In this document: positions 3,606 through 63,900 of the stretch, in pieces | Layout of the letters: the number at the start of each line of letters is the position of its first letter | Position numbering within the stretch: position 1 is the stretch's first letter | NCBI GenBank assembly: GCA_964658305.1 | Contig: OZ210885.1 | Location: 4,464,001-4,528,000, forward strand | Source: Leptogorgia sarmentosa | Taxonomy: Eukaryota | Reading direction: 5' to 3' | DNA: 64,000 nucleotides | Notes under the pieces: model-generated | Told to the model about the DNA's origin: nothing | What the model saw: only the letters and a program-made list of their open reading frames with translations | The model's database searches: none | Translations under genes and position numbers: made by a program

Positions 3606-3669
3606 TATGACATACTAACACTCCCTGTTCGTTTGGTGTTTGTCAAGAGCTCGCCGGAACAAAAAGCGA

Positions 3670-5162: not shown

Positions 5163-5164
5163 TA

Positions 5165-5861: not shown

Positions 5862-6010
5862 CAAGCTCCCGAAGGTTGTTCTAAAAGGATTTCAAACTAC
5901 TGAGATTTTCTTGGGATACAATAACCAAAACTAAGAAACTTGGATCTAGCAGTTTTGGTTCGGTGTATCTGGCTACACATGGTAGCAATTCGCAAAGTGT
6001 CATGATCATG

Positions 6011-6305
6011 AAACTAAAAAATACATAATAAACACTCGCAGACGCGCTTCATAAAAGAGGCGAGATGAGGACACAAACTCACATTCCATATCAATAAACT
6101 GCAGAAAGTCTGCGAGAGAACTCACAGTTTTCTCCACTCCAAAGTAACCGAAACTCGAGTATTGCATGCATCATTACCGAGTACGGCTCACTGCAAAACC
6201 TTAAAAAATAAAAACGAGCTCGTATTGCGGCGGCCTTTGACGCTATTTAGAATTCTCGCCTCTTATGAAGCGTGTCTGGGAGTCGATAGATGTATTTTTT
6301 AGTTT
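6011..6305. mobile_element. MITE-like element with imperfect inverted arms of about 55 bp
   Basis: AAACTAAAAAATACAT..GCTTCATAAAAGAGGCGAGA pairs with TCTCGCCTCTTATGAAGCG..ATGTATTTTTTAGTTT. Confidence 0.6.
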
Positions 6306-6374
6306 CTTGACCTATATGAAACCTAGGTCTACTAACTGTGATGAAACAAACCAGTGCTATATGATATAATCGAC

Positions 6375-8354
6375 GGGTAGGGATAAAACGCGGAACCGGG
6401 ACGTGGAACCGGTATGCGGAAACGGAATGCGGAACTGGAATACGGAGCAGGAATTGGGTATAAAACGCGGAATTGGGGATAAAACGCGGAATAGCCGTGG
6501 TAATGGCTTTTATATTTTCGCTCTATATACCCATTGTTACACCCGGTTCATGCTCATTACATTACACATTAATACATTATAACATAACACAACACAAAAC
6601 ACCAGTGTTATAAATGTGATCATCACGTTGCCGTGCCTAAATACAAAAGTATACAAAGTTCGCAAACTTTAAATGACTATATTTTCCGCATTTTGCGTTA
6701 TTAATTTTTTGTAATCAAATTTAACAATTCGAAAGTGCATCTGAAAGGGGCAAAGTCCATTCGTGACTGCCCACTCTTATAATCTCTCATCCTTGTTTGA
6801 CCGGGTCTTTAGAACGCCACAGAAGCGTGCTTTACAAATAACAATAGTGTGTACTTTGAAAAGTCAAAGGTATAACATAACACAACATAAATTTCAATGA
6901 GTTAGTACAAGTTTGCATGGGCACATGCCTATACCATGATGCATTTAAGGTTTCAATAAAACCCCAAGCTTCGAAGGAAGTGAAAATGTTCTGGCCTTAG
7001 GTGCTGTGCAGCATTTCTCTCTATTTTGCCATCCGAATCATAAAATAGGGTTGTTTCCTTTTGACGCAATTCAAATTTAAATGGAACTATACGTTTCCTC
7101 GTTTACTTTTAAGTTTGCCTGTAATGGGTCGAAATAACTTCTCTCCATTTTTGACGTAATTGTGAGGTCATGTGGAGGGTTGGGAATGTCACCGGGTAGC
7201 CAATCGGTGGTTGTGGTGTCACATTAAGCTGCTGCGTTGTGTTCGATGCAGGATTAACTGGTGGGCAAGTCAAAACGTGCGAGGGATGTACTAGACGTGG
7301 CTGCACTGGATTTCCACTTCCCGAATAACTTGACAGATTATTGCAATGGGGTGTAAATATCGCAGGAACTGTTGAATTAGCTGCAGCATTCAGTAGAAGT
7401 GGTTCTGCTCTAAACCCGATCCAGTCCACAACAACTGCTGGCGGGGCTTTTTCAGCATTTCTCCCTCCCTTGCGCACACTGGTGGCATTTCTCCTTTTTT
7501 TGCCAACGCTTTTGGCGGTATCGCAAGTCATTAATCTTGTTAAGTTTACTCTCTTAAGGCCGTTTGTCTTGAACCATGGTATAAATTTAGCTGTCACACC
7601 AAGCTTTTTTTTTTGCCAACGCTTTTGGCGGTATCGCAAGTCATAAATCTTGTTAAGTTTACTCTCTTAAGGCCGTTTGTCTTGAACCATGGTATAAATT
7701 TAGCTGTCACACCAAGCTTTTCTGCCGCCGCTAATGAGTGTGCACAGAGGTTTCCTGCTTTCCAACTCGGGCAGTCACTGCAAGATACCTTTCCATTTTT
7801 CTACACGGTGACATGATGGGGGGTCTAGGAGACGTATCACTTTCAACCATGAAAGTGGTGTTGCCTGCCGAACCAGGGGCTTTTGCAACTGCGACATGTG
7901 TTGCAATATGGTCGGATCAACGGATGTTATGCCTGCGTTGAGCAAATCAAAAGATTTGTGGTCTGGATTCTGCATTGGTGTAGCTGAGCTTGTGGTTGCA
8001 GTGGCGTTGATAACGTGGCTGTTTGACACTCTTGCACTACGAAATTTTTTTTACGCAAGCTTCCTGAGCCCCTTTTTTTTGAAACCACTCATCTTGTGGT
8101 ACTTCTAAATATAAAAACGTTGGCGTTAAACAGTATGGACCATGGTTCAGGATCGCAGAGTCAACATCCTTCTTCTGGCGCATAACCAAAATACTCATTT
8201 CCTGACAGAACTTAGTCATCTCTCTTTCTTCGAATTGAACGCCGCGTTTAATCACAGCATTGATGGACTCCGGAATGTTGTTGTAATAAGCAGTAGGGGG
8301 TCTCCACAGGCCTGCATGTTCATGAGCTGCTTTGAGCATAGACTGAGTGATCAT
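6375..8354 (-). mobile_element. Decayed DNA transposon end with possible MULE-like transposase fragment (8037-8354)
   Basis: Terminus GGGTAGGGATAAAACGCGGA with subterminal GCGGAA repeats; YNNIPESINAVIK resembles the NxxESxN catalytic-E motif of Mutator-type transposases. Confidence 0.45.
7497..7722 (+). repeat. Tandem duplication, period 113 bp
   Basis: TGCCAACGCTTTTGGCGG...CACACCAAGCTTT starts at both 7501 and 7614. Confidence 0.9.
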
Positions 8355-25918: not shown

Positions 25919-26079
25919 GTTTGTAAAGCTGTGCACTGGGCCAGCTTGTGTTGTACAGAAGCTGGCCTTGTGGCCACGTTGGCCACATCTCCAACACTTT
26001 GATCCTGTTGGGGAAAAAATTTATGGTCAGGAATAAATTGATTTCACTACAATTATACCTGTTGACATAAAAGGACAAA

Positions 26080-26595
26080 CCCTGTGGACATATCTTGACA
26101 CTGGTGCGGGCCGAAATTTTATTTCTCATGAGGCTGTGAAGAAGCTTGGTCTGAATTCAACACATCATGAATCCCGTGACATTGTAACCGTGAGTGGCAC
26201 ATCTACTCAATCCGTGCCTATATTCAAAACAACCATAACTTCTCTTGATGGGAAAGTACAGGAAGAAAGCGAATTAGCTGGTTCTAGGCTCCAGGATTTT
26301 AAGACAGTAAAGAGATCCGTAATGAACGAAGTAAAGATGAAGTATACGCACACTCAAGATAAAAGGTTTTATATGAACGCTAAAGGAGAATATCCAATCC
26401 ATCTCATACTCGGTGATGGAACGTACAGCAGAATCCGAACGGAGAATGTTTATAAAGGAAATCCTGGAGATCCTCTTGTGGAAGAAACAACATTTGGATG
26501 GGTCATTCATGGTGGTGAAGATTACTCGAGCGATGTGTGTGCATGTTCGCTAGAGAAATTAACGATTACGAACAGTTATACAGTCTTGATATTCT
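26080..26595 (+). pseudogene. BEL/Pao protease region, left part of the interrupted host element
   Basis: YLDTGAGRNFIS (aspartic protease DTG), IHLILGD, ETTFGWVIHG; ends EQLYSLDIL at the insertion point. Confidence 0.88.
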
Positions 26596-26610
26596 TCTTA
26601 ATACGTATCC

Positions 26611-27105
26611 CTAAATATTGTTCCTTTAACAATGCCATTTAAAGGTCAATTTCGCATGATTCACGGTCTGCTGCGCATATAACCGTTATTGGGCCAAACC
26701 ACAACATTATACGCATGGTCAATGAAGCGAAAAAATAATTTAAATTTGCAAATACGTGGTAGGAGAAGTGAAAATGTTTCACTATCATGTATGAATATAT
26801 TAAAACATAATATTAGGAACACATGTAAATGAAGGGGTCGTTCCCCTTTTGAAAAGGAACAGGTATTTAAACGGAACACATTGTTCCGTTTCAATTTAAG
26901 TTGTTCCGCACCGCCTATGTTCCGAAATTCGGAACGCTTTAACAAATGTTCATTAAGGAACAATAATAATTGGAGTTCCTTTATTTAGGAACAAAACCTT
27001 CCGCTCTTGCACATATAATAGGTGTTAAAGTGGAACGATTTGTTCCCTTTTCTTGGTCCCTTTTATTGTTCCCTTTGGTTGTTCCCTTTTATTGTTCCCT
27101 TGTGA
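26611..27105. promoter_or_regulatory. GGAAC/GTTCC pentamer cluster, putative protein-binding or origin array
   Basis: About 17 pentamers in both orientations within 500 bp; repeated at about 34380-34665. Function is inferred. Confidence 0.55.
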
Positions 27106-27244
27106 AGGAAGCAATGTCATGAACAATACATCTCTCACAATGCAGTGCCTTAGGCTGTTAATAAGAAAGTCAATTTATGCAGTTTGCATAAGTTGTTGTT
27201 ATAAAAGCCAAGGTACTTTTGATCGCAAACATTTTATCGTTTAT

Positions 27245-28887
27245 ATGTTTGCACGTAGAAAAGCTCAAATAGATTGGAAGTCTGTAGACGGGGCGTTTAC
27301 AAAACCGAGGCGATTGCATTTGGTGAAAGGCAGCGATGGCTTACATCATTGTCCAGTAATAGCTTGTGAACATTCAAGATTTGGCAGTCAAAGAGGCTGT
27401 CGTAAACATGTTAAAACTATACATGCATGATATTACTATTTTGACAAAAGGCCCGAAGTGTGCCTTTCGCCGCTTGCAATCACCGAAACGCAGCGAAGAT
27501 CTGGTAAAGCAGTCCCGGGCTGTTCCACAGATAATGACTTTGCTAGATCGTTTTCAAAATGGCTTCAAAGCAGCTGTGGCGGCGGCAAATCTGCCACACA
27601 ATCGGACGTTTCGGTTAACCGAGCATTAAAGTTCATAAAGTTTTGTTGTGACGAGAATGGCGAGGGCGAAGAAGACGTGCTCAATGCACCTAATCTCATC
27701 GATTACGCCTTGGGGTCTCCACAACTAGTAACAAAGTTTGTGGACGCTCTCAAAGAGAAGTGGTGTATTGGACACTCAGGAGAAATTGGGTATGTCGCAA
27801 GTATTTCTGATTTACTAGATTTTCGCAAATTCAATCGTCCCCCTGCAACGGTGCTTCAAAACTTCGCAGTTACCGAAGTGTATGTAAAGAGAGCGCGAAA
27901 GTATTTAGCCAAAGACATGAGATCAAATTGGACCACCGAACTGGGTATAGAAACCCTCGAATCCCGTAGAAGTTGGGCGACTATTTCCGAAATACAATCC
28001 GTCATTCCATTTCACGAGGACCGTTATAAATCTGTATTAGAAAATTGTATGATATCACCTTCTACAGTCAAAACAGGGGACGTCACATTTGCCACCAGAT
28101 TCGTTGCAGCTTACATGTTCCTCAAAGTGAAAGGTTGCCGCGCAATGACCTACCAACATCTCACCTTGCGAATGTTTGAATGTGCGAAAAGAAATGAAGG
28201 AATAGTGGATCAGAAAGTATTCAAGACCGCTAAAACGTATGGGTTTGACAGTGTTTACTTTGACGAATGCAGCATCCAGTTACTGGAAAAGTATATAGCG
28301 TATGTAAGGCCCCTTCTCACACCCACTTGCGACTATGTGTTGGTGAATCGAAACGGTAAACAGTTCCAAAAACTTTCTAATCTTTTGAGTGTATTGGTGT
28401 TTGAAGCAATAGGAAAATACATTCATCCAACTAGGTACAGACAGATCATCGAAACAGAAAGTGCGCAAGTTCTCCTGCCAAACGAACAGCAGTGGATATC
28501 TGAAGACCAAAAGCATAGCTCCAACATTGCCCGTGTACATTATCAGAAGAAAAGATCCCGTGAAGTGGCCATGAGAGGATGTGAGTGCATGAAAAAATTA
28601 ATTGAGAGAAGTACTAGTTCACAGAGAGAAGATGAGCATGAACAACAGCCCTCGTCTGGCCCCACACATGTTGGCGAAGACACGCCCATCGTTTCCAGCC
28701 CGAAAAAAGCCAAATATACTCGAGGCCCTCGCTTCACAGGTGTGAGGAAGATAACGCCATACGCTTGGGCATTACAAAGTTCGGTTTTTGTTGGACAAGG
28801 ATATTACGCCATCCAGAATATAACTTTCATGCATGTAGACTGGCAAATACTTTAAGAAAGAGGGCGGAAGCCTTGAAATTAGTGTAA
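27245..28887 (+). pseudogene. C2H2 finger - tyrosine recombinase - Myb/SANT protein, copy 1 (546 aa when repaired)
   Basis: CPVIAC..HVKTIH finger; catalytic-like GCR, KTAK, HPTRYR and KHSSNIARVHY; TGA stop at 27428-27430 and 2-bp insertion near 28741 relative to copy 2. Confidence 0.85.
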
Positions 28888-29171
28888 TGATTGCGTGTAA
28901 ACCTTAAATAATTGTAGGTATTATTAGTGTGAATTACATGGGGAAAATGTTGTAAAGAGAAATACAAAAATCAATGTACACCTGCCTATGTGTTATTCTT
29001 TTTCCAACACTCCTTATAATATAATAGTCGTGGAAAGGAACACTACAAAAATCTGTGACATTAAATACATTCACTTTGCATCATCCTTTTGCTTGTATTG
29101 CATGACTCCAGAAATGACAAGAAAGCCTAATTATGACAACTGACAGAACAAATAATGATTGCTTTTATCAA

Positions 29172-29451
29172 CCAGGTGATCTCGATACACGGAAAAAGAC
29201 TGGGACTAGCTGTCAAATAGAAATCCATTTTTCGACCGAAACAACTGAATATCTCTCATAATATACTTTATTTCGATTTCATATTTTTGTCAGAGCTATA
29301 ATTCTCATAACCAAACATAATTACAAAGTTTCAAGTAGTTTCGTACAGAATAACAAAAGATATAAGCGTGTGAATATAGCAAAATGGATTTCTATTCGGG
29401 CAACCCTTTCTGAGCGCTGATTGGCTGAAACACGAATACAAGATCATCTGG
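29172..29451. mobile_element. 280-bp MITE nested in unit 1
   Basis: TIR CCAG(G/A)TGATCT with AA on both sides; absent at the matching site of unit 2 (ATCAAGACTGTG, about 36726). Confidence 0.85.
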
Positions 29452-29453
29452 AA

Positions 29454-31068
29454 GACTGTGAGAAAGAAATAGGTTAGGGTTAGAGTAAGGTTTGGGTGTG
29501 GATTATTTATAAATAACCCCAACCCGGCCCGTAATCTGACCCTAACCTATCAAGAAATAGGTTAGGGTCAGACTACGGGCCGGGTTGGGGTTATTTATTA
29601 ATAACCCTAACCCAGCCCGTAATCTGACCCTAACCTATCAAGAAATAGGTTAGGGTCAGACTATGGGCCGGGTTGGGGTTATTAATAACCCCAACCCGGC
29701 CCGTAATCTGACCCTAACCCATCAAGAAATAGGTTAGGGTCACACAACGGTTTGGGTTGTGATTATGACTTCAATAATCCACACCCAAAACTGACCCTAA
29801 ATTATTGTCCAAATACTTTTACAAACAAGTGCAAACGCAATGTATGCTTCGTTACAACCGTCACAATGTTGTGGTAAAAAATGTTGAAAGTATCGCTTGC
29901 AAAAATTTTCTAAGTAAGTGTCGAGTGTATTTAGTTTTGTCAAAACATGACCGGCTACCCAATATAAATACTAATAAAATCGACCGGCTACCATCTAAAA
30001 TAACCGGCTACCGCCATGTGGTAGCCGGTCGTCAAAAATTTTCTAAGTGTCGAGTGTATTTAGTTTTGTCAAAACTTGACCGGCTACCGGCTACCCAATA
30101 TAAATACTAATAAAATCGACCGGCTACCGACCGGCTACCATCCAAAATAACCGCTACCGCCATGTGGTAGCCGGTCGTCAACAATTTTCTAAGTGTCATT
30201 TGGCAAAATGTTGTAAGTGCCATTACAAACGTTTTGTAAGGATTTAGCAATAGCGTTATAATAATAATAATCTATTAATTAAAATCACATTGCAGTAGAA
30301 CTGAATTACATGATTATATGACAACTTTAAATAGCTACAATAAAATATTTATCGAAGATTAGGACAATGATTAATACACCTATATATACACATTGTGAAG
30401 GCTATAATACTCTAGTAATTGTACTATAATTCTCACCAAAAGTATTTAAAAGTATAAAAAAAGTATAAATGCAATAGAGACTTAGAAAATTTTTGACGAC
30501 CGGCTACCACATGGCGGTAGCCGGTTATTTTGGATGGTAGCCGGTCGATTTTATTAGTATTTATATTGGGTAGCCGGTCATGTTTTGACAAAACTAAATA
30601 CACTCGACACTTAGAAAATTTTTGACGACTGGCTACCACATGGCGGTAGCCGGTTATTTTGGATGGTAGCCGGTCGATTTTATTAGTATTTATATTGGGT
30701 AGCCGGTCATGTTTTGACAAAACTAAATACACTCGACACTTACTTAGAACATTTTTGCAAGCGATACTTTCAACATTTTTTACCACAACATTGTGACGGT
30801 TGTAACGAAGCATACATTGCGTTTGCACTTGTTTGTAAAAGTATTTGGACAATAATTTAGGGTCAGTTTTGGGTGTGGATTATTGAAGTCATAATCACAA
30901 CCCAAACCGTTGTGTGACCCAAACCTATTTCTTGATAGGTTCGGGTCAGACTACGGGCCGGGTTGGGGTTAATAAATAACCCCAACCCGGCCCGTAGTCT
31001 GACCCTAACCTATTTCTTGATAGGTTAGGGTCAGATTACGGGCCGGGTTGGGGTTATTTATTAATAAC
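29454..31068. repeat. Palindrome array plus long inverted repeat (arms about 29590-30195 and 30478-31068)
   Basis: Alternating inverted 40-bp monomers ATAGGTTAGGGTCAGAYTACGGGCCGGGTTGGGGTTAT; inner 130-bp tandem units rich in GACCGGCTACC; ORFs 29805+ and 30433- translate almost identically. Confidence 0.92.
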
Positions 31069-31284
31069 TAACTTATTTCAAGTGCACGAATGGCAAATGA
31101 GGACAACGATATTCTTGAAGGTATAATCGATGTATTACAGTGACTTGCAAGAAGAGTTGGGCAAACAAATGACACATAGGCGGTTGTAAATTGATGTGTG
31201 TATTATTTTTTTCACTCTGGCAATAATAATAATAGAAGTTTCACAACTTTACACTTTGAAAGAATAGAATGATCAAAAGAAAAG

Positions 31285-33921
31285 TCATCTGGACATCCAG
31301 TTTCTCACACTTTGCCAAAAGCTTACTTGTGGCGCTGTGCTGTATGCCGGGTTGGTCTCATCTCCACTGTCGTCGCCGTCATCATTCTGGACACTCGTAG
31401 CACTCTCCACATTGTCATCCGAGATGGAATGCTCCCCCGCACTGCCATCATCCGCCACACTGCTATCAGGAGCCACACTCGCGTCACCAAGGAGACTCGC
31501 CTCATCAAGGATGCTGGCCTCGGCAAGTACACTGGCGTCACTCTCTCCACTTGCGTAACGTTCGACACTCCCATCTCCCCTACTGCCTTCCTGCTTGGTG
31601 TCTGCGCTGTGCGCTTCTTCCGAGTTTTGGGAGGATGCGTCGTTGTCACTTTCTGGAACGATGGAGGAGAGGATAGTGGACTCTGCATCTGTGTTCTGTT
31701 CCTGCGACGCATTTTGCTCCAGGTCGGAGGGAATGGCTGCATTCGAGGATGAAGTGGTCTCCTCGTGTCTTCTCCTTTTATCACTTCGCCTGGCTACTTT
31801 GCGGGCACGAGCCTCCACGTGAAATGCCGGATGAATGTTGTCATCGTTGCTGTCATGACTCAGTGCTTGTGCGCTCGTGCGCTCGTGCTTGGTGCTTGCA
31901 GATCGGCATCCACAATTCCGGCGATGGCGTCACGCTTCCACAGGGAGGAGGACTTGTTTGCAGTAATGACGTTTCGGCGGCCATTTCCTTCTTCATACCA
32001 CAATTCCTCCGGAGGAATCAGGTGGCGATGGTCGTTAAGTTCGTTGGCTATCCATGCAATGCAGTGCATGGCATTGTTGTATAGCCAACGATCTACGCCT
32101 GGATACACGGAAGGGAGAGAGGTGGTGCGGTATATTTCCACTCGTCTCTTGACGTTCTCGTCGTCCTCGCCGAAGTTTGGCACGTCGTTTGTGGTGATGT
32201 AAAACGGGCTGTTGTTGTTTACACACCTGGGGGCGGCGTGTTTGACAGCCGTGACCATCCAACCGCCTTGAAGCAGGGTCTTCGCCAACTCAGCTGACAT
32301 GTGCACCCTGCTCCACTCGTCGATTATGACCAAACACGTGTCCTCGTTTATCATCGCGGCCGAAAACTGTGCCTCACTTGTCACCGAGACAATGTCTTGC
32401 GCAGGGATGACACGTCGCAATACGTTTGCCCACACCGTTTTACCCGAGTCACGCGGACCAACCAGTACCAGTTTCCGGGTTTTGTGGGGCATGTTGGAAC
32501 CGCAGATGCATTGGTAAAATTGTTCAGGAATGCAATTCTCACGTTCACATCCGGAAACGAATTAACAACGCCTTCTTCGAAGAAGCGCGGGTGTTGGTGG
32601 TGTGGAGGATCGATAGGGCATGAATGCCAGCGGCGAAACCTTGCCGATCTTCTCCGCGGAAATGGCGTCGGGAACGAATGAGCGGCAACTTATCGGGAAG
32701 CAGATTCCTTCAGACACTTCTATGAGGTCGGAATCGAACTCCATCTGCTCCACAAGTTCGCAGGCAGGGTGCGACAGGATTCTTTCGATGGTACTGAAAT
32801 GTCTCATCAGGGCGTCGTTGATGGCCGCGTTGCGAAGTATCTTGTTCAGATATGAGGTCACGTCCATCATTCTCACATAAGTAGCGGTCGCTCCTTCCGC
32901 TTTGCCGTAGATGGCCGAACGATGGAGGGTGTGTTCGCATATTGCCATCATGCGAGAGATCTTCTTTATGGTGCTTGTGACCTCGTTTTCTTTGGGAACG
33001 GATGTCGCCACGTTCGATTGGTGCGAGTGCAAGGTGAGACCATCCGATCGCACTCTGTCCACCGCGGTGTGTATGCCATGCTCGTACCCCTCGTGGTTCA
33101 CAACGGTGAAAACACAGGGCAGGGTTGGGAAGTGCTTCGGTTGGAAGTGCTCGTCTTCATCCTCTGCCTCATCATTCGACGACGACTGCACGTCCTCATA
33201 ACAATGGGCATTGGAGGCATCTAACATCTCCTGCACCGTGGCGTTGTTGTGGTCTTTCACAACCTGGAACAACTGCCGGCGGCAGTGTCCATCTGGTCGT
33301 TGTCCCCCTTCCTCACATTGATTGACTGGAAAAAGAGGACAGGTGTGAGGTGTAAGAAAGTGTGCATCATTTCAACACCTTGGATTGTTAGCTACACATC
33401 TTCAAATTACGTTTACCTTAATATTAGGTTCCAGGTCTTCATTGTGGAGTCGGGCAAAGAACGTGTCCTGATTGCACTCTTCGGATGGGGTGTACACAAT
33501 AAAGTACGCAATCGCGGGATACGCCTCATTCTTGGATTGCCCGGTGCTCGATCGCTTCTCGTTGGTCGATACTGCCGTGATGCAGGAGAAAAAGAAATGG
33601 ACGGATTTCATGCTTTTAATGACGTCATCCAACTTCAAGCGTTTCGACGCAATCTGGAGTGTCACCAACTCAACGTCTTCTTCCCGTACCCGCCATGTAG
33701 CACGGCACACAAGTGCTTTGTAACTTGGTCTTATCTGGTAGGATAGAGACGGATTGACCAATGTCCATGTAAATATTTTATGAACATGTGAATATGCAAT
33801 TTGTAAAAATGTGAGCTCTACATATGTGATTAAATGCACTTACCAAACTTAAAATGTTCGCTCGAAGCGAGTTTTGTATGCGCTTGGAGTCTAACTCCTT
33901 CCGCGGTTTTGGTGGCGGCAT
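31285..33921 (-). pseudogene. Spliced superfamily-3 helicase (Rep-like) gene, copy 1
   Basis: Walker A GPRDSGKT, Walker B IIDE and motif C YITTN; start MPPPKPRKELDSKR; GT-AG introns at 33735-33843 and 33326-33416; several frameshifts; acidic Ser-rich tail. Confidence 0.88.
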
Positions 33922-34807
33922 TTCTGCTCACTTTGCTTTCCTTGCTTTACTTGCTTTACTTTTCTTGACTTTCCTTTCCTTTTCTTCACTGTCCTTTCCT
34001 TGCTTTCCTTTTCTTTCCTTTACTTTCCTTTTCTTCCCTAATAACTTTTCTGAACTTTTTTTTGGAGTGTCACTCGGCGAACGGTGCAATGTTTATGGGC
34101 AAAGTGTAAATCGCGTTCGCTTTTTAAGCGTTTTCATGTACGAAATTTGCATTTGAACAGAAAAGGAACAACATTTAGTACTTGGGTCTTAATAACAATG
34201 CCATTTAAAGGTCAATTTCGCATGATTCACGGTCCGCTGCGCATATAACCGTTATTGGGCCAAACCACAACATTATAGGCATGGTTAATGAAGGGGAAAA
34301 ATAATTTAAATTTGCAAATACGTAGTAGGAGAAGTGAAAATCTTTCACTATCATCTATGAATATATTAAAACATCATGTTAGGAACACATGTAAATGAAG
34401 GGGGAGTTCCCCTTTTGAAAAGGAACAGCAATTTAAACGGAACACATTGTTCCGTTTCAATTTAAGTTGTTCCGAAAATGGGAACGCTTTAACAAATGTT
34501 GATTAAGGAACAATAATAATTGGAGTTCCTTTATTTAGGAACAAAATGTTCCGCTCTTGCAGATATAATATGTGTTAAAGTGGAACGATTTGTTCCCTTT
34601 TGTTGTTCCCTTTTATTGTTCCCTTTGGTTGTTCCCTTTTATTGTTCCCTTTTATTGTTCCCTTGTGAAGGAAGCAATGTCATGAACAATACATCTCTCA
34701 CAATGCAGTGCCTTAGGCTGTTAATAAGAAATTCAATTTATGCAGTTTGCATAAGTTGTTGTTATAAAAGCCAAGGTACTTTTGCTCGCAAACATTTTAT
34801 CGTTTAT

Positions 34808-36446
34808 ATGTTTGCACGTAGAAAAGCTCAAATAGATTGGAAGTCTGTAGACGGGGCGTTTACAAAACCGAGGCGATTGCATTTGGTGAAAGGCAGCGAT
34901 GGCTTACATCATTGTCCAGTAATAGCTTTTGAACATTCAGGATTTGGCAGTCAAAGAGGCTGTTGTAAACATGTTAAAACTATACATGCATGGTATTACT
35001 ATTTTGACAAAAAGCCCGAAGTGTGCCTTTCGCTGCTTGCAATCACCGAAACGCAGCGAAGATCTGGTAAAGCAGTCCCGGGCTGTTCCACAGATAATGA
35101 CTTTGCTAGATCGTTTTCAAAATGGCTTCAAAGCAGCTGTGGCGGCGGCAAATCTGCCACACAATCGGACGTTTCGGTTAACCGAGCATTAAAGTTCATA
35201 AAGTTTTGTTGTGACGAGAATGGCGAGGGCGAAGAAGACGTGCTCAATGCACCTAATCTCATCGATTACGCCTTGGGGTCTCCACAACTAGTAACAAAGT
35301 TTGTGGACGCTCTCAAAGAGAAGTGGTGTATTGGACACTCAGGAGAAATTGGGTATGTCGCAAGTATTTCTGATTTACTAGATTTTCGCAAATTCAATCG
35401 TCCCCCTGCAACGGTGCTTCAAAACTTCGCAGTTACCGAAGTGTATGTAAAGAGAGCGCGAAAGTATTTAGCCAAAGACATGAGATCAAATTGGACCACC
35501 GAACTGGGTATAGAAACCCTCGAATCCCGTAGAAGTTGGGCGACTATTTCCGAAATACAATCCGTCATTCCATTTCACGAGGACCGTTATAAATCTGTAT
35601 TAGAAAATTGTATGATATCACCTTCTACAGTCAAAACAGGGGACGTCACATTTGCCACCAGATTCGTTGCAGCTTACATGTTCCTCAAAGTGAAAGGTTG
35701 CCGCCCAATGACCTACCAACATCTCACCTTGCGAATGTTTGAATGTGCGAAAAGAAACGAAGGAATAGTGGATCAGAAAGTATTCAAGACCGCTAAAACG
35801 TATGGGTTTGACAGTGTTTACTTTGACGAATGCAGCATCCAGTTACTGGAAAAGTATATAGCGTATGTAAGGCCCCTTCTCACACCCACTTGCGACTATG
35901 TGTTGGTGAATCGAAACGGTAAACAGTTCCAAAAACTTTCTAATCTTTTGAGTGTATTGGTGTTTGAAGCAATAGGAAAATACATTCATCCAACTAGGTA
36001 CAGACAGATCATCGAAACAGAAAGTGCGCAAGTTCTCCTGCCAAACGAACAGCAGTGGATATCTGAAGACCAAAAGCATAGCTCCAACGTTGCCCGTGTA
36101 CATTATCAGAAGAAAAGATCCGGTGAAGTGGCCATGAGAGGACGTGAGTGCATGAAAAAATTAATTGAGAAGTAATAGTTCACAGAGAGAAGATGAGCAT
36201 GAACAACAGCCCTTGTCTGGCCCCACACATGTTGGCGAAGACACGCCCATCGTTTCCAGCCCGAAAAAAGCCAAATATACTCGAGGCCCTCGCTTCACAG
36301 GTGAGGAAGATAACGCCATACGCTTGGGCATTGCAAAGTTCGGTTTTTGTTGGACAAGGATATTACACCATCCAGAATATAACTTTCATGCATGTAGAGT
36401 GGCAAATACTTTAAGAAAGAGGGCGGAAGCCTTGAAATTAGTGTAA
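34808..36446 (+). pseudogene. C2H2 finger - tyrosine recombinase - Myb/SANT protein, copy 2
   Basis: YR domain open (GCRP, HPTRYR, KHSSNVARVHY); a 2-bp deletion near 36168 separates the Myb domain RFTGEEDNAIRLGIAKFGFCWTRIL..LRKR. Confidence 0.88.
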
Positions 36447-36730
36447 TGATTGCGTGTAAACCTTAAATAATTGTTGGTATTATTAGTGTGAATTACATGG
36501 GGAAAATGTTGTAAAGAGAAATACAAAAATCAATGTACACCTGCCTATGTGTTATTCTTTTTCCAACACTCCTTATAATATAATAGTCGTGGAAAGGAAC
36601 ACTACAAAAATCTGTGACATTAAATACATTCACTTTGCATCATCCTTTTGCTTGTATTGCACGACTCCAGAAATGACAAGAAAGCCTAATTATGACAACT
36701 GACAGAACAAATAATGTTGGGTTTCATCAA

Positions 36731-37012
36731 GACTGTGAGAAAGAAATAGGTTAGGGTTAGAGTGAGGTTTGGGAGTGGATTATTTATAAATAACCCCAAC
36801 CCGGCCCGTCGTCTGACCCTAACCTATTTCTTGACAGGTTAGGGTCAGATTACGGGCCGGGTTGGGGTTATTAATAACCCCAACCCGGCCCGTAATCTGA
36901 CCCTAACCTATTTCTTGATAGGTTAGGGTCAGCTTACGGGCCGGGTTGGGGTTATTAATAAATAACCCCAACCTGGCCCGTAGTCTGACCCTAACCTATT
37001 TCTTCATGATAG
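36731..37012. repeat. Palindrome array of unit 2
   Basis: Same 40-bp monomer in alternating orientation as at 29454; lacks the inner long inverted repeat. Confidence 0.92.
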
Positions 37013-37566
37013 TCTTTCTAAAAGTGGACATTATGTGAATGTGTAGTCAAGGTTTTTTCCTTCCTACTCAGGGGATCTTTCTCTAACTGTTGCCCTTCCC
37101 AGCTGTAATTAGACAAATGCCATTAACACACATATTTTAATTGAAATAATTATAAGTCATAGTGCACATAACGCACTAGAAAAATGTAAGGTTAATAAGT
37201 TGAGATTACATGAAATTTGTTCACAGTCACAGCGTTCAATAACATTGTTCGTACACTAATGGGTTGTTACACACTTTGAATCAACGATGATTTAATATAT
37301 TACAACACTTCTTCATAATCATATAATATAGAAAGGATTTAAACAACAGCAGCCTGGATAACGGTGTCATCTGCAGGCGAACGGATTTCATAGGTAATGC
37401 CAATGGATTTGAAATGGGATATTTCATGCAGATTTCCCTTCAATTTTCAATGGAAGTTCAGGAAACGAAATGCTTATTCAATTGTTTCGTTGCGGAAGTT
37501 TTTGGGCAATGTACATAAAATAAGATGAAGGGAATCGGCTTGTATTCATGCACACTGACAATTGTT

Positions 37567-40025
37567 TCAACCCCACCAGTTTCGAATGGTTGTCCAGTAC
37601 GATGGTTGGTTCTCACGATGTTCAACTTGAACAGGGGATTCTCCGGAAACATCTGGGGTGTCGGTGGTGGTTTGTTGTGATAGACCAGCTTCTGTTTGTG
37701 CAGTTGAAGTTGATGGTTGAAGGTCGGATTCCGCTAATGCAGTGGGCGACGGAGGAACATTCGGTGTGGAAAAAGTTTCTTCTGATTCGCGACTGGTGTG
37801 TTCCAGGTGGTGAGCAGGTGCAATTGTGGGACCTTCGCTATTGGACGTATAAGAATCGTTCCCATCTCCTGTCATTGCGGGTGTGGTTGGTGTTGATGGC
37901 GACCGCAAGCTTTCCGTGGGTTTGGGAGAGGTCACTACATTTGGCTGATGCTCCTCGTCAGACGAACTGGCGGTGGAATTTACTGGCCTCGCACGTGGTC
38001 GTTTCCTCATCATGCGTCTCCTTCTTGCTTCCATCGTGAAGCTCGCATGGATTGTGTCATGTGTGGTGGTGGGTTGGGTAGCGGACTCACCATGAAGATC
38101 AGCGTCGGTGATCTGTACAATCTCCCGTCTGTGCCACGGAGTGGGGGTGAGTGACTTAAAGTGTGCTCGTCCTCATACCAGCGCTCCTCCGGATGGATGA
38201 GGTGGCGATGCCTAGTTATCTCCTCGGCGGCCCACGCGATGCAGTCCATCGCGTGATCGTACATCCACTGGTAAGCGTCAGGTGTTATGGTTGGGAGGGA
38301 GGAGGTGGTGAAGTTCTCAACTCTCCGTTGGACATTTGTGTTCTCTTCATCAAAGTCCGGCACTGCATTGGTGGTGATGTAAAACGGGCTGTGGCAAGTT
38401 ACGTGTCTTGGTTGGGCGTGCTTTACCGCAGTTACTAACCAACCGCCTTGCAGGATGGTCTTCGCGAGATCGGCGGACATTGTGTTTGCACACCATTCGT
38501 CAATGATGACGAGTTGGGTGTCCTCCTTGATCATGGCAGCTGAAAATTGGCGCTCGTTCGTGATGGATGCGATGTACTGGGGTGGAACTATGCGTTGAAG
38601 GATACGTGCCCACGAGGTTTTGCCGGAATCGCGAGGTCCTGCGACAACCAATTTTCGCGTCTTCTGAGGGATTTTCTGCGCGAGTAGGCACTGGTAAAAT
38701 TTATTCATGAAGTTCGTGCGCACGTCGACATCGGGAAAGGAATTGTAGAGCCCTTGGCGAAAGTATAGAGGTTGAGGTGGTGTGGAGGAGTCGTAGGGTA
38801 TGTACGCTCGCGGCGACAACTTGCCAATGCTTGCTTCTTGGATGGCATTTGCTATGAAGGCTCGACTGCAAATAGCAAAACAAACACCGTTGGACACTTC
38901 AATAAGGTTGAAGTCAAAGGCTAGCTGCTCGATGATCTCGCACGCCGGATGGGACAGTATGGTTTGGACACTTTTCATATTTTTGACCAGCTGCTGATTG
39001 ATAGCGTCGTTGACAAGCAGTTTGTTTAAATAGCTGCCAACGTCCATGAGCCGTGTGTAGGTGAATTGCGCTCCATCGGGAGTTGCATAAATGTCACCAC
39101 GGTACAGGGCGTGTTTCGACAGGTGCATAACCCGTTCCACCTTGCGGATGGTGGATATCACATCTGTGGACGGTGAGTCAGACGAACGTGGGTGGAAGTT
39201 TGGGCGCGGTGTAGTTTCCACAACCAGGCCATCAGATTGGGTCCTCTCTATTGCAGCGTCAAATTCCTCGAGATAACCTTCGTGATTTACGATGACGAAA
39301 CAACAAGGAGAGGTTGGAAAATGGACCGGGCAAAATTCCTCCTCTGACTACTCGTCTTCCTCCTCCTCGCTTTCACTGGACGCAGCGGGTGCATTGCTAT
39401 AGCAGTAGGTGTTGGACGCGTTCAGCATTTCCTGCACGGACGGATTGTTATGATCTTTCACCGTCTGGAAGAGCTGTCTAGCTGCAGTTTCCAGATCCGG
39501 CTTTCCGCGGGTGCGCACCCTGATCGGCGTTATTTCTGGCTCCACGTCCTGATTGTGCAATGCAGCAAAAAAGGTCCCCTCGTGGCATTTGTCGCTGCTT
39601 TCGTAGACGATGAAGAATGCCACACAAGGATAGGTGTCGTCGTCGTTTGTGTTGCTGCTTTGCCCCTTCTTCGTGTTCGCATTGGAAGAGACGGCAGATA
39701 TGGCCGAGAAAAAGAAAGCCACACCTTCGATTGCTTCTATCACCTCGTTGAGCTGCAGACGTTTGGAGGCAATTTGTAACGTAGCCTGTTCAATGTTCTC
39801 AGAAGGAACTCGCCATGTAGCGCGACATGCGACCGCTCGATGTTTAGGTTTAAGCTAATGCAAAATAAATGCGATATTATTTAGGTTGCATATACGTCGG
39901 GTACATAGGTTTTTGCCAAAATGTAGATAAAGAATGTCATGGGAACTTACCAAGCTCAAAACATTTGCGCGCAGAGAGTTTTGCAGGCGTTTCGAATCTA
40001 GTTCTTTTCTTGGCTTCGGCGGCAT
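37567..40025 (-). pseudogene. Spliced superfamily-3 helicase (Rep-like) gene, copy 2
   Basis: GPRDSGKT, IIDE and YITTN; start MPPKPRKELDSKR; intron at 39855-39950; in-frame TAG at 39348 and a frameshift near 38150. Confidence 0.88.
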
Positions 40026-40392
40026 TTTGCAAGAGAACTAATTGTTGTGTGCACTTGCAAGAGAACTTGTTGTGTGCACTGAACGGAAATGTTGAATGAA
40101 TTTATATGTTTTGCTATGATGGTATTAACATTTTCGCAAATTACCGCCTCCCGGATATGAATCTGCGAAAAATCACCCTCAAATTTTGAATATAAAAGAT
40201 ATATTATAACAACCACTCGCTTCTCTCAAAAACCCTCTCTCTAAAATATATTACAACCACATGTAAAATAACCCTTCCCATTGGCTGCCCGCTAGTTGCT
40301 CTACTTCCGGTCCCGCGACCTTGGCAACTTCCACATTTTTTTCTCAGCCAATTTCCAACAAACATAGGGAACAATATTTAGTACTTGGGTCT

Positions 40393-40530
40393 AGTTGAAG
40401 ATCGTGGTGAAAACGACCAAATGCAAGTCCTTTCAGAATTTCGGGAAAGCATAACCAGGCAAGAAGATGGCAGATACCAGGTTAGCATTCCGTGGATTCC
40501 TGGCAGTAAGTTGACAACTACAAATGGTCA
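40393..40530 (+). pseudogene. Continuation of the interrupted BEL/Pao pol
   Basis: VEDRGENDQMQVLSEFRESITRQEDGRYQVSIPWIPG is homologous to GVVESNKIHDEFVESITFNGSRYSVKLPW in the 18169 ORF. Confidence 0.85.
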
Positions 40531-41271: not shown

Positions 41272-42660
41272 TCAACATGCCCAGCTTTAGAACAGAAACA
41301 GCCGAAGCATTCGAAGTCACGGGGGTTGATTTTGCCGGGCCCTTAAGAGACAAGATCGCAAAGAATAAAGAAGGAAAATGCTACATATTAATCTTCATGT
41401 GTGCAGCATTTCGTGCGGTGCACTTGGAACTAACTAAGAGTCAAGAAGCGGAGGAGTTCCAAAGAAAGCTCAATTCTTTCATCGGACGAAGAGGAGGCCT
41501 CGATTAATGATATCAGACAATGCAGCGACATTTAAAACGACGGCAAAACTAATCAAAGTTATAAGGAAGAGCGAGAAGTTACACGATTTCCTAGCAACAC
41601 AAGATATACACTGGAGATTTAACCTTGCCAGGTCTCCATGGTGGGGAGGCATCTATGAGTGATTGATTCGTGAAATAAAGAAGACCTTGTACAAGACCCT
41701 AGGAAGATCGCACCTTTCATTCGAGAATTTAGAAATGGTTCTTATGGATATTGAAATTAATATGAACAATCGTCCTTTAACCTACGTAGAAAGTGAGAGT
41801 GGGGAGGAAGAAGTGCTGACGCCAAGTGTTCTGATCTGAGGAAAAAACACTTGAATGACTTAGAGAACGATGCTGACGAGCTTACGAAGATGCAGAGGAC
41901 GGTCGTTAAGGCAAAGAACGACGCTTGAAAAAGATGGCAACGGGAATACGTACACAGCCTAATGGAGAGCCAGTTAGCCCGCCTGAAGTAGGAGAAATAG
42001 TTTTAGTCATGGGAGAAGAAAAGAATAGGAGTGAATGGAAGAAAGGAAAAGTGGTCCGACAAGTAAAAGGCAAGGATGGTGTGCTGTCTCACAAGGGTCA
42101 CACTATCGAAAGACCACTACAGTTGGTATGTCCACTCGAAATTCGATGCACAACGCAAGTAGAAGAAAGCCAGAACGAAAAGAAACGCGAGGTTGAACCG
42201 CAAAGCTTAAGAAAAAGAGGGGCAGCAATGGAAGCAAGAAAGAAAATATGAGAACAGGCAGAGAACGAGGATGAACTGTAGATAAGGACATTTGACACTG
42301 AGTTGAAGTTATAAAAATTAAGTTTAAATTTTTAGGAGAGTAATATACGGGAACGTTAAGATATAAACAACAGGGGGGCGGGGCAAGTCTAAATATAGAA
42401 ATGAGTAATATAGGAGGGCTTTTTGTGAGAGACAGAAGAACAACAACATTGTGGGTTTTGGGAGGATTTATAAATTTTAGTTTGTAAGTTTATTTTTGGT
42501 TTATATTTTGAAATATATAGTATACTTGGGAGTGTGTGATGAGTTCGGTATAGTGGGATAGACTTTTGTAGAATTCGTGTATTTCGTAGAATTCGTGTAT
42601 TTTCGCTGGGTTAGATCCGTTGATTACTGGTAGATTTATGACTTCCCCGATATAGCCGTT
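41272..42660 (+). mobile_element. BEL/Pao 3' part: integrase, polypurine tract and LTR
   Basis: GVDFAGP and following integrase motifs; highly similar to 3775-5162. Confidence 0.9.
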
Positions 42661-57700: not shown

Positions 57701-59094
57701 GGGTTAGGATAAAACGCGGATACGGATGGCGGACGGCGGATACGGATGGCGGATGAAAATGGCGGACGAAAGATAAAACGCGGATGAAAATGGCGGACGA
57801 AAGATAAAACGCGGATGAAAATGGCGGATGAAAGATAAAACGCGGATGAAAGATAAAACGCGGATGAAAATGGCGGACGAAAGATAAAACGCGGATGAAA
57901 GATAAAACGCGGATGAAAATGGCGGATGAAAGATAAAACGCGGATGAAAATGGCGGATGAAAGATAAAACGCGGATGAAAATGGCGGACGAAAGATAAAA
58001 CGCGGATGAAAATGGCGGACGAAAGGTAAAACGCGGATGAGAAAAGTTATGCTATTGTTGTTTCTAGAGCATTTTCAGTATTTTCGAAGCTTGAATTTGT
58101 GAGATTCATTGCCGTCGTGATCAATATTGACTTGTGATAGTTCATTTCTAGCTGTAATATTTACACTTCTCACAGCTTCGCAGACGGGCGCACGGCTTAA
58201 TGTTTTCAAATCTGCCCGGCAGCAACGCTTTCCCAAAGCTGTGTGCGTGCATGTGTAAACAGTAGCGCACACTTGTCGCTGGTTTATATTTATCTTTATA
58301 GTTCGTGTATGAAGTGTTTATAAATTGGATTGTTTTACTTAAGTCCAGTTCAGTCCCTGTGATATTCTGTCGCGTGCGCTATGTATAGCTAAATGCTTAT
58401 AAAATGTAGTGCCTTTTTCCACTTTCGGGATGTCGCTATTCGGAGGTTTGTCGACTGAAGATAAAGATACAACCACAACGTCTGCGACCGGGTTTGAAGT
58501 CAACGGCTTGCCATGTTTTAAATACTCTAACTTGGTAAATAAAGATGAAATAGGTCGAGGCGGCTTCGCAGCGGTTTTCATTGCAGAGTTATCTTCTGGT
58601 GGCCAAAAAGTTGCTGTCATGAAGTTCCCTCACATTGAAGCAGAGTCTCATTATGACTATCATAATTAGTCAATATTGATCGTGACGGCAATGAATCTCA
58701 TAAATTCAAGTTTCCAAAATACTGAAAATGCTCTAGTAACAACAATAGCATAACTTTTCTCATCCGGGTTTTATCTTTCGTCCGCCATTTTTATCCGCGT
58801 TTTATCTTCCATCCGCCATTTTCATCCGCGTTTTATCTTTCGTCCGCCATTTTCATCCGCGTTTTATCTTTCGTCCGCCATTTTCATCCGCGTTTTATCT
58901 TTCGTCCGCCATTTTCATCCGCGTTTTCTCTTTCGTCCGCCATTTTCATTCGCGTTTTATCTTTCGTCCGCCATTTTCATCCGCGTTTTATCTTTCGTCC
59001 GCCATTTTCATCCGCGTTTTATCTTTCGTCCGCCATATTCATCCGCCATCCGTATGCGCCGTCCGCCATCCGTATCCGCGTTTTATCCTAACCC
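57701..59094. mobile_element. Foldback element with inverted arms of about 440 bp containing 30-bp tandem repeats
   Basis: Termini GGGTTAGGATAAAACGCGGATACGGATGGCGG on both sides; units GATAAAACGCGGATGAAAATGGCGGACGAAA; arms 57701-58140 and 58658-59094. Confidence 0.92.
58430..58626 (+). pseudogene. Protein kinase N-lobe fragment inside the foldback
   Basis: EIGRGGFAAVF (Gly loop) and QKVAVMKF (subdomain II-like); nothing of the kinase follows. Confidence 0.7.
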
Positions 59095-60026: not shown

Positions 60027-60655
60027 CAGGGTGTATCAAAAAAAAGTTTACTGATGAAAAACATTCTCTAAACTAACGAGCGCTCAAAATTTCCAAAAAC
60101 TTTCGGTTAGCCAGGGTAGTTTAACACCCTCTGGTATATCTATCACTAAGTTTATTTTAAAAACAAACTTTTTTAGCATGGGAAATGTGGTTATTGAAAG
60201 GCCCATTAAAAACGGCTTGCGCGGAAAAAATAAGTTTTCTTCACACAATTTGATTTAATCAGATGAAAATATGGAGTATGATATACAAGCTATTCAAGTT
60301 TTGAGAAATTTTGTGCACGCTGAGACGAACGTGCGATGTCCGAAACCTGGATTTTCCGCAATTTCTTCGCGTAATTACGGACCTTTGGGAATTAGCTTGA
60401 ATTTGCATTGGTAATTAATGCAAATATCCAATTATGCATAAATTAATCGGTAATCACGCAAGAAAGAACGCAAAATCCAGTTTTTGGACATCGCACGTTC
60501 GTCTCGGCGTGCACCAAATTTCTCAACACTTGAATAGCTTGTATATCATACTCCATATTTTCATCCGATTAAATCAAATTGTGTGAAGAAAACTTATTTT
60601 TTCCGCGCAAGCCGTTTTTAATGGGCCTTTCAGTAACCACATTCCCCATTCTAAA
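60027..60655. mobile_element. Tc1/mariner-type foldback MITE, right end lost
   Basis: Left end TA-CAGGGTGTATCAAAAAAA; inverted arms at about 60178-60380 and 60450-60650. Confidence 0.75.
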
Positions 60656-60909: not shown

Positions 60910-63900
60910 CTAACAAACAACGTTAGTCCCATGTTTTGTATGATGCGGTTTACTTTCGTTATTTCGACGGACCCGGAAATTTGATTCAATCAACCTTGGT
61001 AACTGTTCTTCATCGGTATCAGGGCTCAATACTACTCTATTCTCATGTTCAGAATTTACTAGTACAGGAAGACGATCCTCTCTTATGTCAATTCTATTTC
61101 TAGACGCACCAGTTCTTCTAACGGGTGATTTTCGCTTTCGTTTTTTGCGTGGAGCTTCAATTGGTAGCACTGGTTTCCCCTTCAATGTGCGAAACTGCAC
61201 AATCAAGCCAAGTATGGTTATGGAGCCCCAGACACCGGAAAGTATGTAATCTATAAGAAGGCGATCATATATATTAATGACATTATTCGGAAGTGTGCCA
61301 GAAGTTGTAAACAATTTTATAAAATGACCGGAAGTAAGTGAAAAAGACTGCGCGCGCGTGATTGGCTAACCAGCCGTGTTGATGTGAGATATGTAATCAC
61401 AGCTATTTCCCGCTGCTTCTCGCTATTCCGTTATTCCGCTTTTGTCATCGTGTTGTTTTATAAAAGCAATAGAAAACATTTTCCTATGTTTACATTGAGT
61501 TGTGTAAACACTCGTGCTAGTTTGGGAGAACTCGAAAGGTGTGGAAACACTCCCCCTTCGGGCTTGTGTTTCCACACGTTTCTCGTTCTCCCAAACTTGC
61601 ACTCGTATTTACATAACTCGATGTAAACATGGAAAATGTTTTCTATTCCTTAAATTGAATTCGGTTCTCGTAGGACATGACGAATTGTCAAGACAGAGGC
61701 TTGTGTCATCTACAGAAGGCCGAGGCAGATAAGACAAATCACGGCCTAGGTAGGTCTTCATATCCTACGAGGACGGAATTCAATAGTTGTATTATTTAAA
61801 AAATTGGTTGCGAAATGTATTGTAAAATGACGAAAATGAAGCCTTGCTGAATTTGGTATATTTTTGTATTACGTGCAGAACTTTTGAATATTTTTGGCTT
61901 AATTAAATGTAATTAAATTTTTAGCGTGAAATATAAAAATATACAGAAAATTTGCAAATTTCAGCTGGCTATATTTTCCGCATTTTACAACATTTCGCAG
62001 CCAAACTTTGCAATTGTACTAATTTTAAATTGCTCTTTTTAGGCTGTCGTGATTGATTCGTTCTTGCCTGGATTGAAACTCGGTCTATGGCTGAAATTGT
62101 CTATTGTTATGGTCAACGTTTCCTCTCCGATACCATGTTGGTTTCAGTTTTAGTGGTATGACATTTTCTGTCTTGTAATATTTTACTGAGGGAGACTAAC
62201 GACAGACAAACAAACAACAAATTTTCTGTTAAATGTCAATTTTTGTTGGGATACTTTTGGGCTAAGTCCAGAGTTCATAAGAAAACAAAATGGTGGTTTC
62301 CGCGAGCTTTCTGGAAGGTTGCACGACTTTACAGGAAGGAATTGGTCTGTTTCATCATACTGAATTGAGTGAGGGTTGACTTGAAATGTCTCAACATTTG
62401 TTACTTGGAAACTGATTCGAAATAAACCTTTAAAATGCTTGCGCACGCCAGTGTCAAAACAACGAATCGCAATGCAATGTGGGAAACATGTGGGAATAAA
62501 TTTACTTGTGTATACGTATTTATTATTTGAAGTTTGTACAATCACTTTCAAAAGTAGTTGGGACACCAATGGTCTTAGGACATCAGTGGCATCGTGCTAA
62601 TAATTACAAACAAAACACTCCTCGGCCCTCCCCTCCCACCACCCCATTCATTGTTGTTTTTCCAAACATACATTATTGTACGCAAAAACCAATTGCTAAC
62701 TACAACACAACATTGAATTGGGGGCAAGGGGATTGATGTTTCAGGAAATGATGGCTATTTGGGGCATCTGTCCCAACACATTTGAAAGTGATTGTAGTTT
62801 ACACCGCGTAATTTTATTATCGCAATAAAATAATTGCGATAATAAAATTAGGTGGTGTAAACTACTTTTCCTGATGGAAAATCCACGTGACGTAAGACGT
62901 AAGATATATACTACCGCAAAATAACATTTCTTTACTGAAACCTCGGGAAATAGTGAGTTTTGTTTCCACAAGACTCACTGTTTCCCTCTGTATTAGTAAA
63001 TAAATGATATATATTAAATATTTAAAACTATATCGAGCTACGTCAAATTTAGTTACTCTTACCTTTTGTTTGGAATGGTATATCGTACTTGACAAAATCA
63101 TCCACTGTGGCTTTCATAACAATATTGAGTATGATGTACGTCATGGATGACTTCAGGAATGTATCAATACCTATACATAAAGCAAAGCACGTCAAATTAA
63201 ATTCAGCACAATTCTATAGAGAAGAAAATCGTCTGCATATGGAACGAAATTGAGCTACAAACAGCCCAAAATCCCATCGATACAGTATGTGGTATTTGTG
63301 CTGGTATATGAAAGACGCACGCTTTATGAGCGGTGTGATTTTACGAGATTGCAATTTTATCAATAATTGCCAAAGGGTAAGTTTAACCTTAATCAGTTAG
63401 TATTACACAACACATTAAGTACACTCTACCTACTACAAATCCATAAGCTCCAACGAAAGAACTTGCCAATATGGCAAACTAAAAAAGAAAGTAAAAACCA
63501 ATGGTGAAAACCCTATTCTATAAAAACTCCAGCCTTACGCAATGCGGCCATGCCTTAAAATTTGTCATTTTGCGTGGTAGGCCTAATATTATTGTTTTTG
63601 ACCATTATCTTTTGTCAAAAGAATTTTACCAGTAACTTATTTCGCAAGTCGAACTGCGAAATTTTCATGGCGTATTTTCTAAACCAATTTTTCAAACGTT
63701 TGGTGGGCGACACTTGAACACTTCCCATGCACATATTTAAGCTAGTGATTTTACCAGCCAAAATGGCGGATTTGAGGCCTGGTCGCAAACTGAGAAAAGT
63801 TAATTAGCAGAAGCGAATTACTAGCCTTGCTATATCATGTCTTACCACTTTTAGACAGATGAGAAAAATGCATGGAAGCGTAACTGACATACACAAGAAA

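Follow-up and report, generated by a model that had tools for sequence, protein, structure and literature searches.

Positions 26596-40392 of the window, the whole 64-kb stretch of DNA analysed here, form a 13.8-kb insert made of two units lying end to end; in the open reading frame (ORF) survey of the window, a plus-strand gene and a minus-strand gene converge in each unit (Table 1). The best explanation, given a probability of roughly 0.7, is that the insert consists of two related Crypton-type elements in tandem. The join between them would then consist of unit 1's right end, a short core, and unit 2's left end minus 25 bp, and the end sequences would likely be arms to which the elements' own tyrosine recombinase binds, on either side of a spacer of 6-7 bp.

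Table 1. Features of the insert and its flanks (window coordinates).
Feature	Position	Strand	Remark
Left flank: BEL/Pao retrotransposon pol region (aspartic protease), broken by the insert	26037..26595	+	Pfam Asp_protease_2, E 8.5e-8
Left spacer/core TCTTAAT, 7 bp, predicted strand-exchange region	26596..26602	+	Internal join repeats these letters after its right arm
Conserved 13-bp left arm, likely recombinase core-binding site (predicted)	26603..26615	+	Aligns with the left ends of 12 relatives
Left copy of the repeat first noticed, 14 bp extending to 17 bp; outer part of the arm and GTTCC block	26611..26627	+	
Unit 1 left subterminal region, rich in GGAAC/GTTCC; candidate accessory sites or origin	26628..27195	.	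13-bp tandem array 27040-27101
Unit 1 tyrosine recombinase gene, broken	27245..28884	+	Stop 27428-27430, frameshift near 28741
Palindromic 88-bp repeat arrays around an inverted 600-bp segment (unit 1)	29452..31068	.	Between the convergent genes
Unit 1 SF3 (D5/E1-type) helicase gene, broken	31285..33839	-	3-4 stops relative to intact relatives
Right arm of unit 1: 17-bp outer repeat and 8 inner bases	34162..34186	+	Aligns with relatives' right ends
Core and 25-bp deletion point, internal join	34187..34194	+	Unit 2 left arm gone
Rest of unit 2 left subterminal region, GGAAC-rich	34195..34786	.	13-bp array 34590-34664
Unit 2 tyrosine recombinase gene, catalytic part open	34808..36443	+	Frameshift near 36166-36172, before the Myb-like tail
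Palindromic repeat array (unit 2)	36729..37037	.	Unit 1/unit 2 identity stops at its start
Unit 2 SF3 helicase gene, broken	37567..39854	-	One stop and one frameshift
Right arm of unit 2, including the repeat 40368-40381	40365..40389	+	Aligns with relatives' right ends
Right-junction TCT	40390..40392	+	
Right flank: BEL/Pao reading resumes	40393..40520	+	

The recombinase modules of the two units (26627-29171 and 34193-36730) are 96.7% identical. The helicase genes agree at 65% over 807 nt, and the sequence common to the two right ends is limited to the last 25 bp and one weak 86-bp match. An earlier, sequence-only reading of this DNA had called the insert a dimer, but helicase genes that are 35% different mean that it is no replication dimer; it is a tandem of two subfamilies. 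All four genes of the pair carry stops or frameshifts, and because of these lesions the pair is most likely immobile now.

Both flanks are parts of one BEL/Pao element. The protein of the left flank has 66 longer relatives, many of them with the Pao peptidase family (PF05380), and the motif at the insertion site is present in 56 of these 66. Its residue is glycine in 53 of the 56 and leucine in none, while the window's flanks, if joined, would give leucine. A clean duplication of TC(T) at the site is therefore not supported, and three target bases seem to have been replaced. Either this BEL copy had changed earlier or the three bases were replaced on integration, as a mismatched overlap could do. 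Elsewhere in the window, a 1.4-kb pair of sequences that are 88% identical (3776-5162 and 41273-42660) is probably the integrase end of two BEL/Pao copies.

The plus-strand genes encode a recombinase whose predicted structure (mean pLDDT 74) has the Xer/Cre fold, with matches to XerA (E 4.2e-4) and Cre entries and also to phage and large-virus integrases. Pfam holds no family for either window recombinase, and a sequence search of the PDB with the recombinase finds nothing beyond the Myb-like tail. Candidate catalytic motifs, which we take to be the R, K, HxxR, H and Y of tyrosine recombinases, are conserved in an alignment of 33 recombinases, 26 of which have the Myb-like match. No DUF3504 match at E <=1 is seen in any of the 33. 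As expected of a Crypton, the ORFs of the units and of two complete relatives include this recombinase and no reverse transcriptase. There are 961 relatives of the recombinase; the named ones belong to corals and octocorals. Named relatives of the window's proteins come from Paramuricea, Oculina and Dendronephthya and point to a coral as the likely host of the window, and cnidarian hosts are what would be expected of the CryptonV group.

The minus-strand genes encode a helicase that matches the Pfam families DUF5906 and PPV_E1_C (the papillomavirus E1 helicase family), and the protein of unit 2 is 94-97% identical to the database protein P0121. The structural model of a relative, P0122, has the SaPI5 primase-helicase as its top match (Z 14.7, rmsd 4.7, 298 residues aligned) and also matches poxvirus D5, the SV40 T antigen and AAV Rep. 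The match to the SV40 T antigen spans the whole length of the model. Residues 1-215 form a well-predicted N-terminal alpha/beta domain with weak matches only (ferredoxin-like folds; Rep nuclease, Z 6.8); judged from the model, this may be an origin-binding domain. SaPI-type phage satellites carry an integrase and a primase-helicase. The present elements are like them in having no capsid and in pairing an integrase with a D5-type SF3 helicase. They differ in their animal host; also, no primase domain is shown and no helper virus is known for them.

The ends of the elements are best seen in relatives from metagenomes, where a scan gives 177 relatives, of which 80 are kept as loci; these counts are not independent because many loci are the same family from several samples. 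The helicase lies downstream on the opposite strand, in the convergent layout, in 23 of the 80 loci. The flanks of near-identical copies part abruptly, and a conserved 13-bp motif lies 6 bp further in. On these contigs of cnidarian type, it marks the left end in four families and also in several single loci. The right ends carry the same motif inverted. In all four relatives with both ends, 10-12 of the 13 positions of the two arms are complementary, and the spacer is 6 bp in both of the intact junctions. No contig among the 80 loci is circular, and junctions of the circle type are seen only within tandems. The well-mapped relatives form a recombinase clade separate from that of the window, at 41-56% identity, which weighs against the best explanation.

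With a profile drawn from the ends of 13 relatives only, the site at 26603 scores 15.7 bits, second best in the window; the better-scoring arm-like site at 37512 is internal and so is not an end, as is the case for an arm-like site inside L044/L046. At arm position 10 the window has T, with A as its mirror image in both right arms; most relatives have A/T there. The right arm is poor in its inner 8 bp, letters that are the same in both units: it is complementary to the left arm at 7 of 13 positions and has a profile score of -14.4, which also weighs against the best explanation. A shifted register for this arm scores no better. Even so, the right arms of unit 1 and unit 2 are identical at 24 of 25 bp in surroundings that cannot be aligned. 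Both pieces of the canonical tyrosine-recombinase site, two arms and a short spacer, are thus found, at 10-12/13 and 6 bp in the relatives and at 7/13 and 7 bp in the window.

What first drew attention to this place is a 14-bp inverted repeat. As the sequence-only reading had it, 26611-26624 is the exact reverse complement of 40368-40381, and a copy with one mismatch lies at 34165-34178. With one mismatch or none allowed, the 64-kb window has no match besides these three copies, and for unit 1 the repeat is longer, at 17 bp with one mismatch (34162-34178 against 26611-26627). A perfect inverted match of at least 14 bp arises in 3 of 20,000 random pairs of 40-mers from the window, and none of 87 40-mers from the GGAAC-rich left subterminal region has an inverted match above 11 bp. 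The claim that the repeats are recombinase binding arms is partly upheld. The end sequences are supported as arms, but the 14-mer covers only the outer 5 bp of the conserved 13-bp arm together with an outer GGAAC block. Most right ends, and L001 too, have this outer block at a fixed distance, and it is absent from the left ends of the other relatives.

The internal join resembles a circle junction in its make-up, with a right arm, a core and left-end sequence, and the gap in it, reported as about 25 bp, is exactly 25 bp relative to the left end. The alignment of left end and join contains this one gap, which can be placed in three equivalent ways (26602-26626, 26603-26627 or 26604-26628) through a 2-bp TA microhomology. 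The conserved 13-bp left arm lies inside the missing 25 bp, so the deletion did take one arm, as had been proposed. In one placement, the limits of the gap coincide exactly with the core border and the end of the 17-bp repeat; this was noticed after the fact and suggests that a nick at the predicted cut site may have been repaired through microhomology. The deletion, a local accident, has limited importance. Just inside unit 1's right end (33830-34156), there is also a pyrimidine-rich 5/10-bp repeat (33931-34039), which on the minus strand would encode a Lys/Glu-rich stretch upstream of the unit 1 helicase.

The distance of 23 bp between the 14-mers across the core is real (8 + 3 + 12), but the unusual 23-bp spacer read from it is not supported. 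The left arm at 26603-26615 belongs to the 25 bp that are missing, which puts the predicted spacer at 6-7 bp: the 13-bp arm stands directly beside 6 bp in the relatives and 7 bp in the window. At the place of the window's left spacer, the relatives have a 6-bp core that begins with TC. Of 17 left ends, 15 have a core that opens with TC; of 7 right ends, some of them first chosen with a filter for TC, 6 have TC after the arm. Without that filter, TC follows the arm in all seven terminal right-arm matches (L001-L084). The left core travels with the element, as the same core is found in two different flanks (L081 and L096), and the right side keeps only TC (L081 compared with L091, and L044 with L046). 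Simple repeats flank 11 of 24 ends, compared with 45 of 5,000 background stretches. The relatives thus show the target-specific insertion, in part into microsatellites, that is described for CryptonV, while the window's own flanks are not simple repeats. As far as the letters allow, the geometry of the predicted site is ordinary for tyrosine recombinases, and the unusual point is that the spacer varies while only TC recurs.

Of the relatives, L001 is the nearest one with DNA and has a recombinase only. It keeps the spacing of arm, 4 bp and GTTCC seen at the window's left end. One of its ends abuts a CA-type (CAACAG)n repeat rather than TC, and this counts against the best explanation. Its GGAAC-rich end lies downstream of the gene, the reverse of the usual layout (845-2533, 3200-3750). 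DNA of the window's own subfamily is not found in the viral contigs or in the assemblies behind L081, L082 and L084; these three assemblies also lack a close copy of unit 2, and neither the right-end motif of the window nor the junction motif of the relatives has a match in the viral contigs. The three assemblies added one right end (L091) and one left end (L096). Of nine pattern matches in them, six were judged to be chance and dropped and two are L081's own; another 13 matches with one mismatch, 7 of them inspected, were dropped as chance. In L057, L013 and L024, the ends are rearranged or cut, and no junction was obtained. L081, L082, L083 and L084 are animal-type elements on contigs of assemblies labelled bacterial, likely through host contamination.

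Natural tandems speak to the question of whether the lost arm trapped the pair, as had been suggested. In L081, two related units with different right ends lie in a microsatellite, and their join has a 6-bp spacer between its two arms. A second intact join of right end and left end, again with both arms kept, opens L035. Tandems can therefore persist with no loss of an arm, and since unit 1 of the window also retains a full left arm and a full right arm, the pair was probably not trapped by the deletion. The shortened join looks like an ordinary right junction, with an arm, TC and non-arm DNA. Excision of unit 1 or of the whole pair could in principle still be feasible, and only unit 2 on its own would be disabled. 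The L081 contig, though its assembly is labelled bacterial, is inferred to be host DNA. Part of it (3344-7296) is an internally deleted derivative, with a left end, helicase fragments and a right end, beside a recombinase-only unit, and a second copy of each end of this derivative is present in the same assembly (L096 and L091).

The movement of such an element can be pictured as follows. The element would leave as a circle, with a join made of the right arm, TC and 4-5 variable bases, and the left arm. The circle would integrate where the target offers TC, often a TC-type microsatellite, and a match would be needed only on the TC side of the spacer, as with IntDOT. The left junction would then retain the element's spacer, and the right junction would retain TC and the target. 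An existing element end would also offer a matching core, so that a second, related element could insert there and form a tandem. Finally, a nick or break at the border of core and arm, repaired at the 2-bp microhomology, would account for the loss of 25 bp.

The regions next to the left ends are rich in GGAAC/GTTCC. This pentamer occurs 17 times in the first 600 bp of unit 1, against an average of 1.12, and 10-44 times in the first kilobase of 9 of 9 relatives, against 1.0-2.6 per kilobase elsewhere. The enrichment by the left end is 5- to 30-fold (L004, L010, L016, L018, L025, L041, L071, L076 and unit 2 of L081). Between the genes of both units are palindromic arrays of 84-88 bp with TTAGGG-like motifs (36729-37037, 29452-29800 and 30857-31068). 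Since the identity of unit 1 and unit 2 stops where the array starts, the array may mark a point of module exchange. Other palindromic arrays lie in similar or subterminal places in relatives (L081, 10900-12030; L017, about 8230-8310).

Several other explanations of the insert can be considered. The one that keeps most of the best explanation takes only the inner arms to be catalytic and the outer GGAAC repeats to be sites for the helicase (origin iterons) or for the accessory domains of the recombinase (its zinc-finger-like N-terminus and Myb-like tail), with the tandem inserted once, as a replicated or co-integrated circle of two subfamilies. This is quite possible, if not the favoured account: the pentamers are enriched in all nine relatives, the helicase model resembles the SaPI5 primase-helicase, poxvirus D5 and the SV40 T antigen, and the Myb-like match recurs in 26 of 33 recombinases. 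However, the structure does not give the order of events, and the account departs from the best explanation in two respects only, how the tandem arose and what the outer block does. A still broader claim is tentative and rather doubtful. It would make the elements a widespread animal family, with two genes and no capsid, whose circles replicate by their own D5-type helicase from an origin of GGAAC iterons and integrate by a tyrosine recombinase that needs a 2-bp match, leaving mixed tandems with swapped modules; this would be a eukaryotic counterpart of phage satellites and integrative elements.

The model of the sequence-only reading, in which the 14-bp repeats are the recombinase arms, the spacer is an unusual 23 bp and the loss of an arm locked a dimer, is improbable. 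It can point to the repeat of 14-17 bp as the only perfectly symmetric part in the window's subfamily, where the inner 8 bp are asymmetric, to the fixed distance of GGAAC in most relatives' right ends and L001, and to a deletion that removes the whole left repeat. But what is conserved across families is the inner arm beside a 6-bp spacer, the outer GTTCC is absent from the relatives' left ends, the tandems of L081 and L035 persist with intact arms, unit 1 keeps both of its own, and a 35% difference between helicases does not suit a replication dimer. It is just as hard to credit that the elements are remnants of an integrating DNA virus, now without capsid genes, and their ends proviral att sites. 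The helicase is of a viral type and the recombinase model matches phage and large-virus integrases, yet the complete relatives L016 and L018 (8,167 and 7,817 bp) have the recombinase and the helicase as their only long ORFs, the others being short and overlapping the helicase. The viral contig collection, too, is without a relative of either protein, and the recombinase-only L001 and the deleted derivative in unit 1 of L081 fit the behaviour of transposons. Less credible still is that the left end of unit 2's subfamily is short by nature, or that the gap or the whole tandem is an assembly error. The gap is known from a single assembled copy of the subfamily, but it removes a motif that no mapped left end lacks, the divergence between the units is too great for collapsed alleles, and L081 is a natural tandem of the same build.

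Among known systems, Cre/loxP and Xer/dif recombination needs a matching spacer; here, in contrast, the spacer is not constant from one element to the next, nor is it the same at the two junctions of a single element. The coupling sequences of Tn916 are comparable to att sites of the IntDOT type. In CTnDOT, IntDOT acts on a 7-bp overlap with a conserved dinucleotide on the left and five variable bases, according to the sections of PMC2817482 that deal with it. The present elements share with it the short overlap, the conserved left dinucleotide, the variable right bases and the imperfect inverted arms (PMC2817482, same sections). The difference is that IntDOT belongs to bacterial conjugative elements and uses GC, where TC is used here with 6 bp in the relatives; the likeness is one of pattern, and by analogy we infer the same mechanism. 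The likeness to Cre/loxP and Xer/dif is in the match to the XerA/Cre fold and in the arms of 11-13 bp around a spacer of 6-8 bp, which the relevant part of PMC3212892 gives for tyrosine-recombinase sites. By these analogies, the elements would work as Cryptons do, but with arms of the lox type and a relaxed need for homology of the IntDOT type.

CryptonV is the named group that comes nearest; its members are described as Cryptons of cnidarians that are target-specific, some of the families lying in microsatellites (Kapitonov and Jurka 2012, Repbase Reports, as cited in a portion of PMC8869645). Membership is likely on the description of that group, the only basis of the comparison in place of its sequences: a tyrosine-recombinase DNA transposon, cnidarian hosts and some families in microsatellites, with the difference that the window copy sits in a BEL element and not in a microsatellite. 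The RepeatMasker label Crypton-H also exists and was compared by name only. CryptonA and CryptonI are likewise recombinase-encoding DNA elements of animals for which movement as a circle is proposed (Kojima and Jurka 2011, in the parts of PMC3212892 on these groups). The same parts describe them as having no C-terminal domain, no terminal repeats and a DUF3504 match; the present family differs in its Myb-like tail, inverted arms, helicase and lack of DUF3504 (0/33). Identity with CryptonA is rejected on this count and on the Myb-like C-terminal match in 26 of 33. Nor do the ends fit the 4-6-bp terminal direct repeats and absence of terminal inverted repeats expected of Cryptons, as they have 2-3 bp (TC, TCT) and 13-bp inverted arms. 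The CMITE tandem arrays of corals are piggyBac-related and not of this family, going by excerpts of PMC2872659.

In the literature covered, which lies outside Repbase Reports, Kojima's 2019 review and supplements, no element of cnidarians that combines a recombinase with an SF3 helicase was found. None is described in the portions seen of PMC11071296, PMC13465315, PMC5753468, PMC11934779, PMC12070523 and PMC13465017. Animal Cryptons have been described as lacking terminal repeats, and the junctions reported here offer a concrete, testable site, with 13-bp arms, a spacer of 6-7 bp and a 2-bp TC match. Natural tandems are seen in them as well. A recombinase adapted to eukaryotes with almost no need for target homology would be of interest to transposon biologists and genome engineers alike, and the main value of the insert lies in the testable anatomy of the site and in the helicase-bearing family. 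Beyond the insert, the window holds more inverted-repeat structures with short internal tandem units (57701-59094, 60172-60655 and 61464-61651), which are probably MITE-like.
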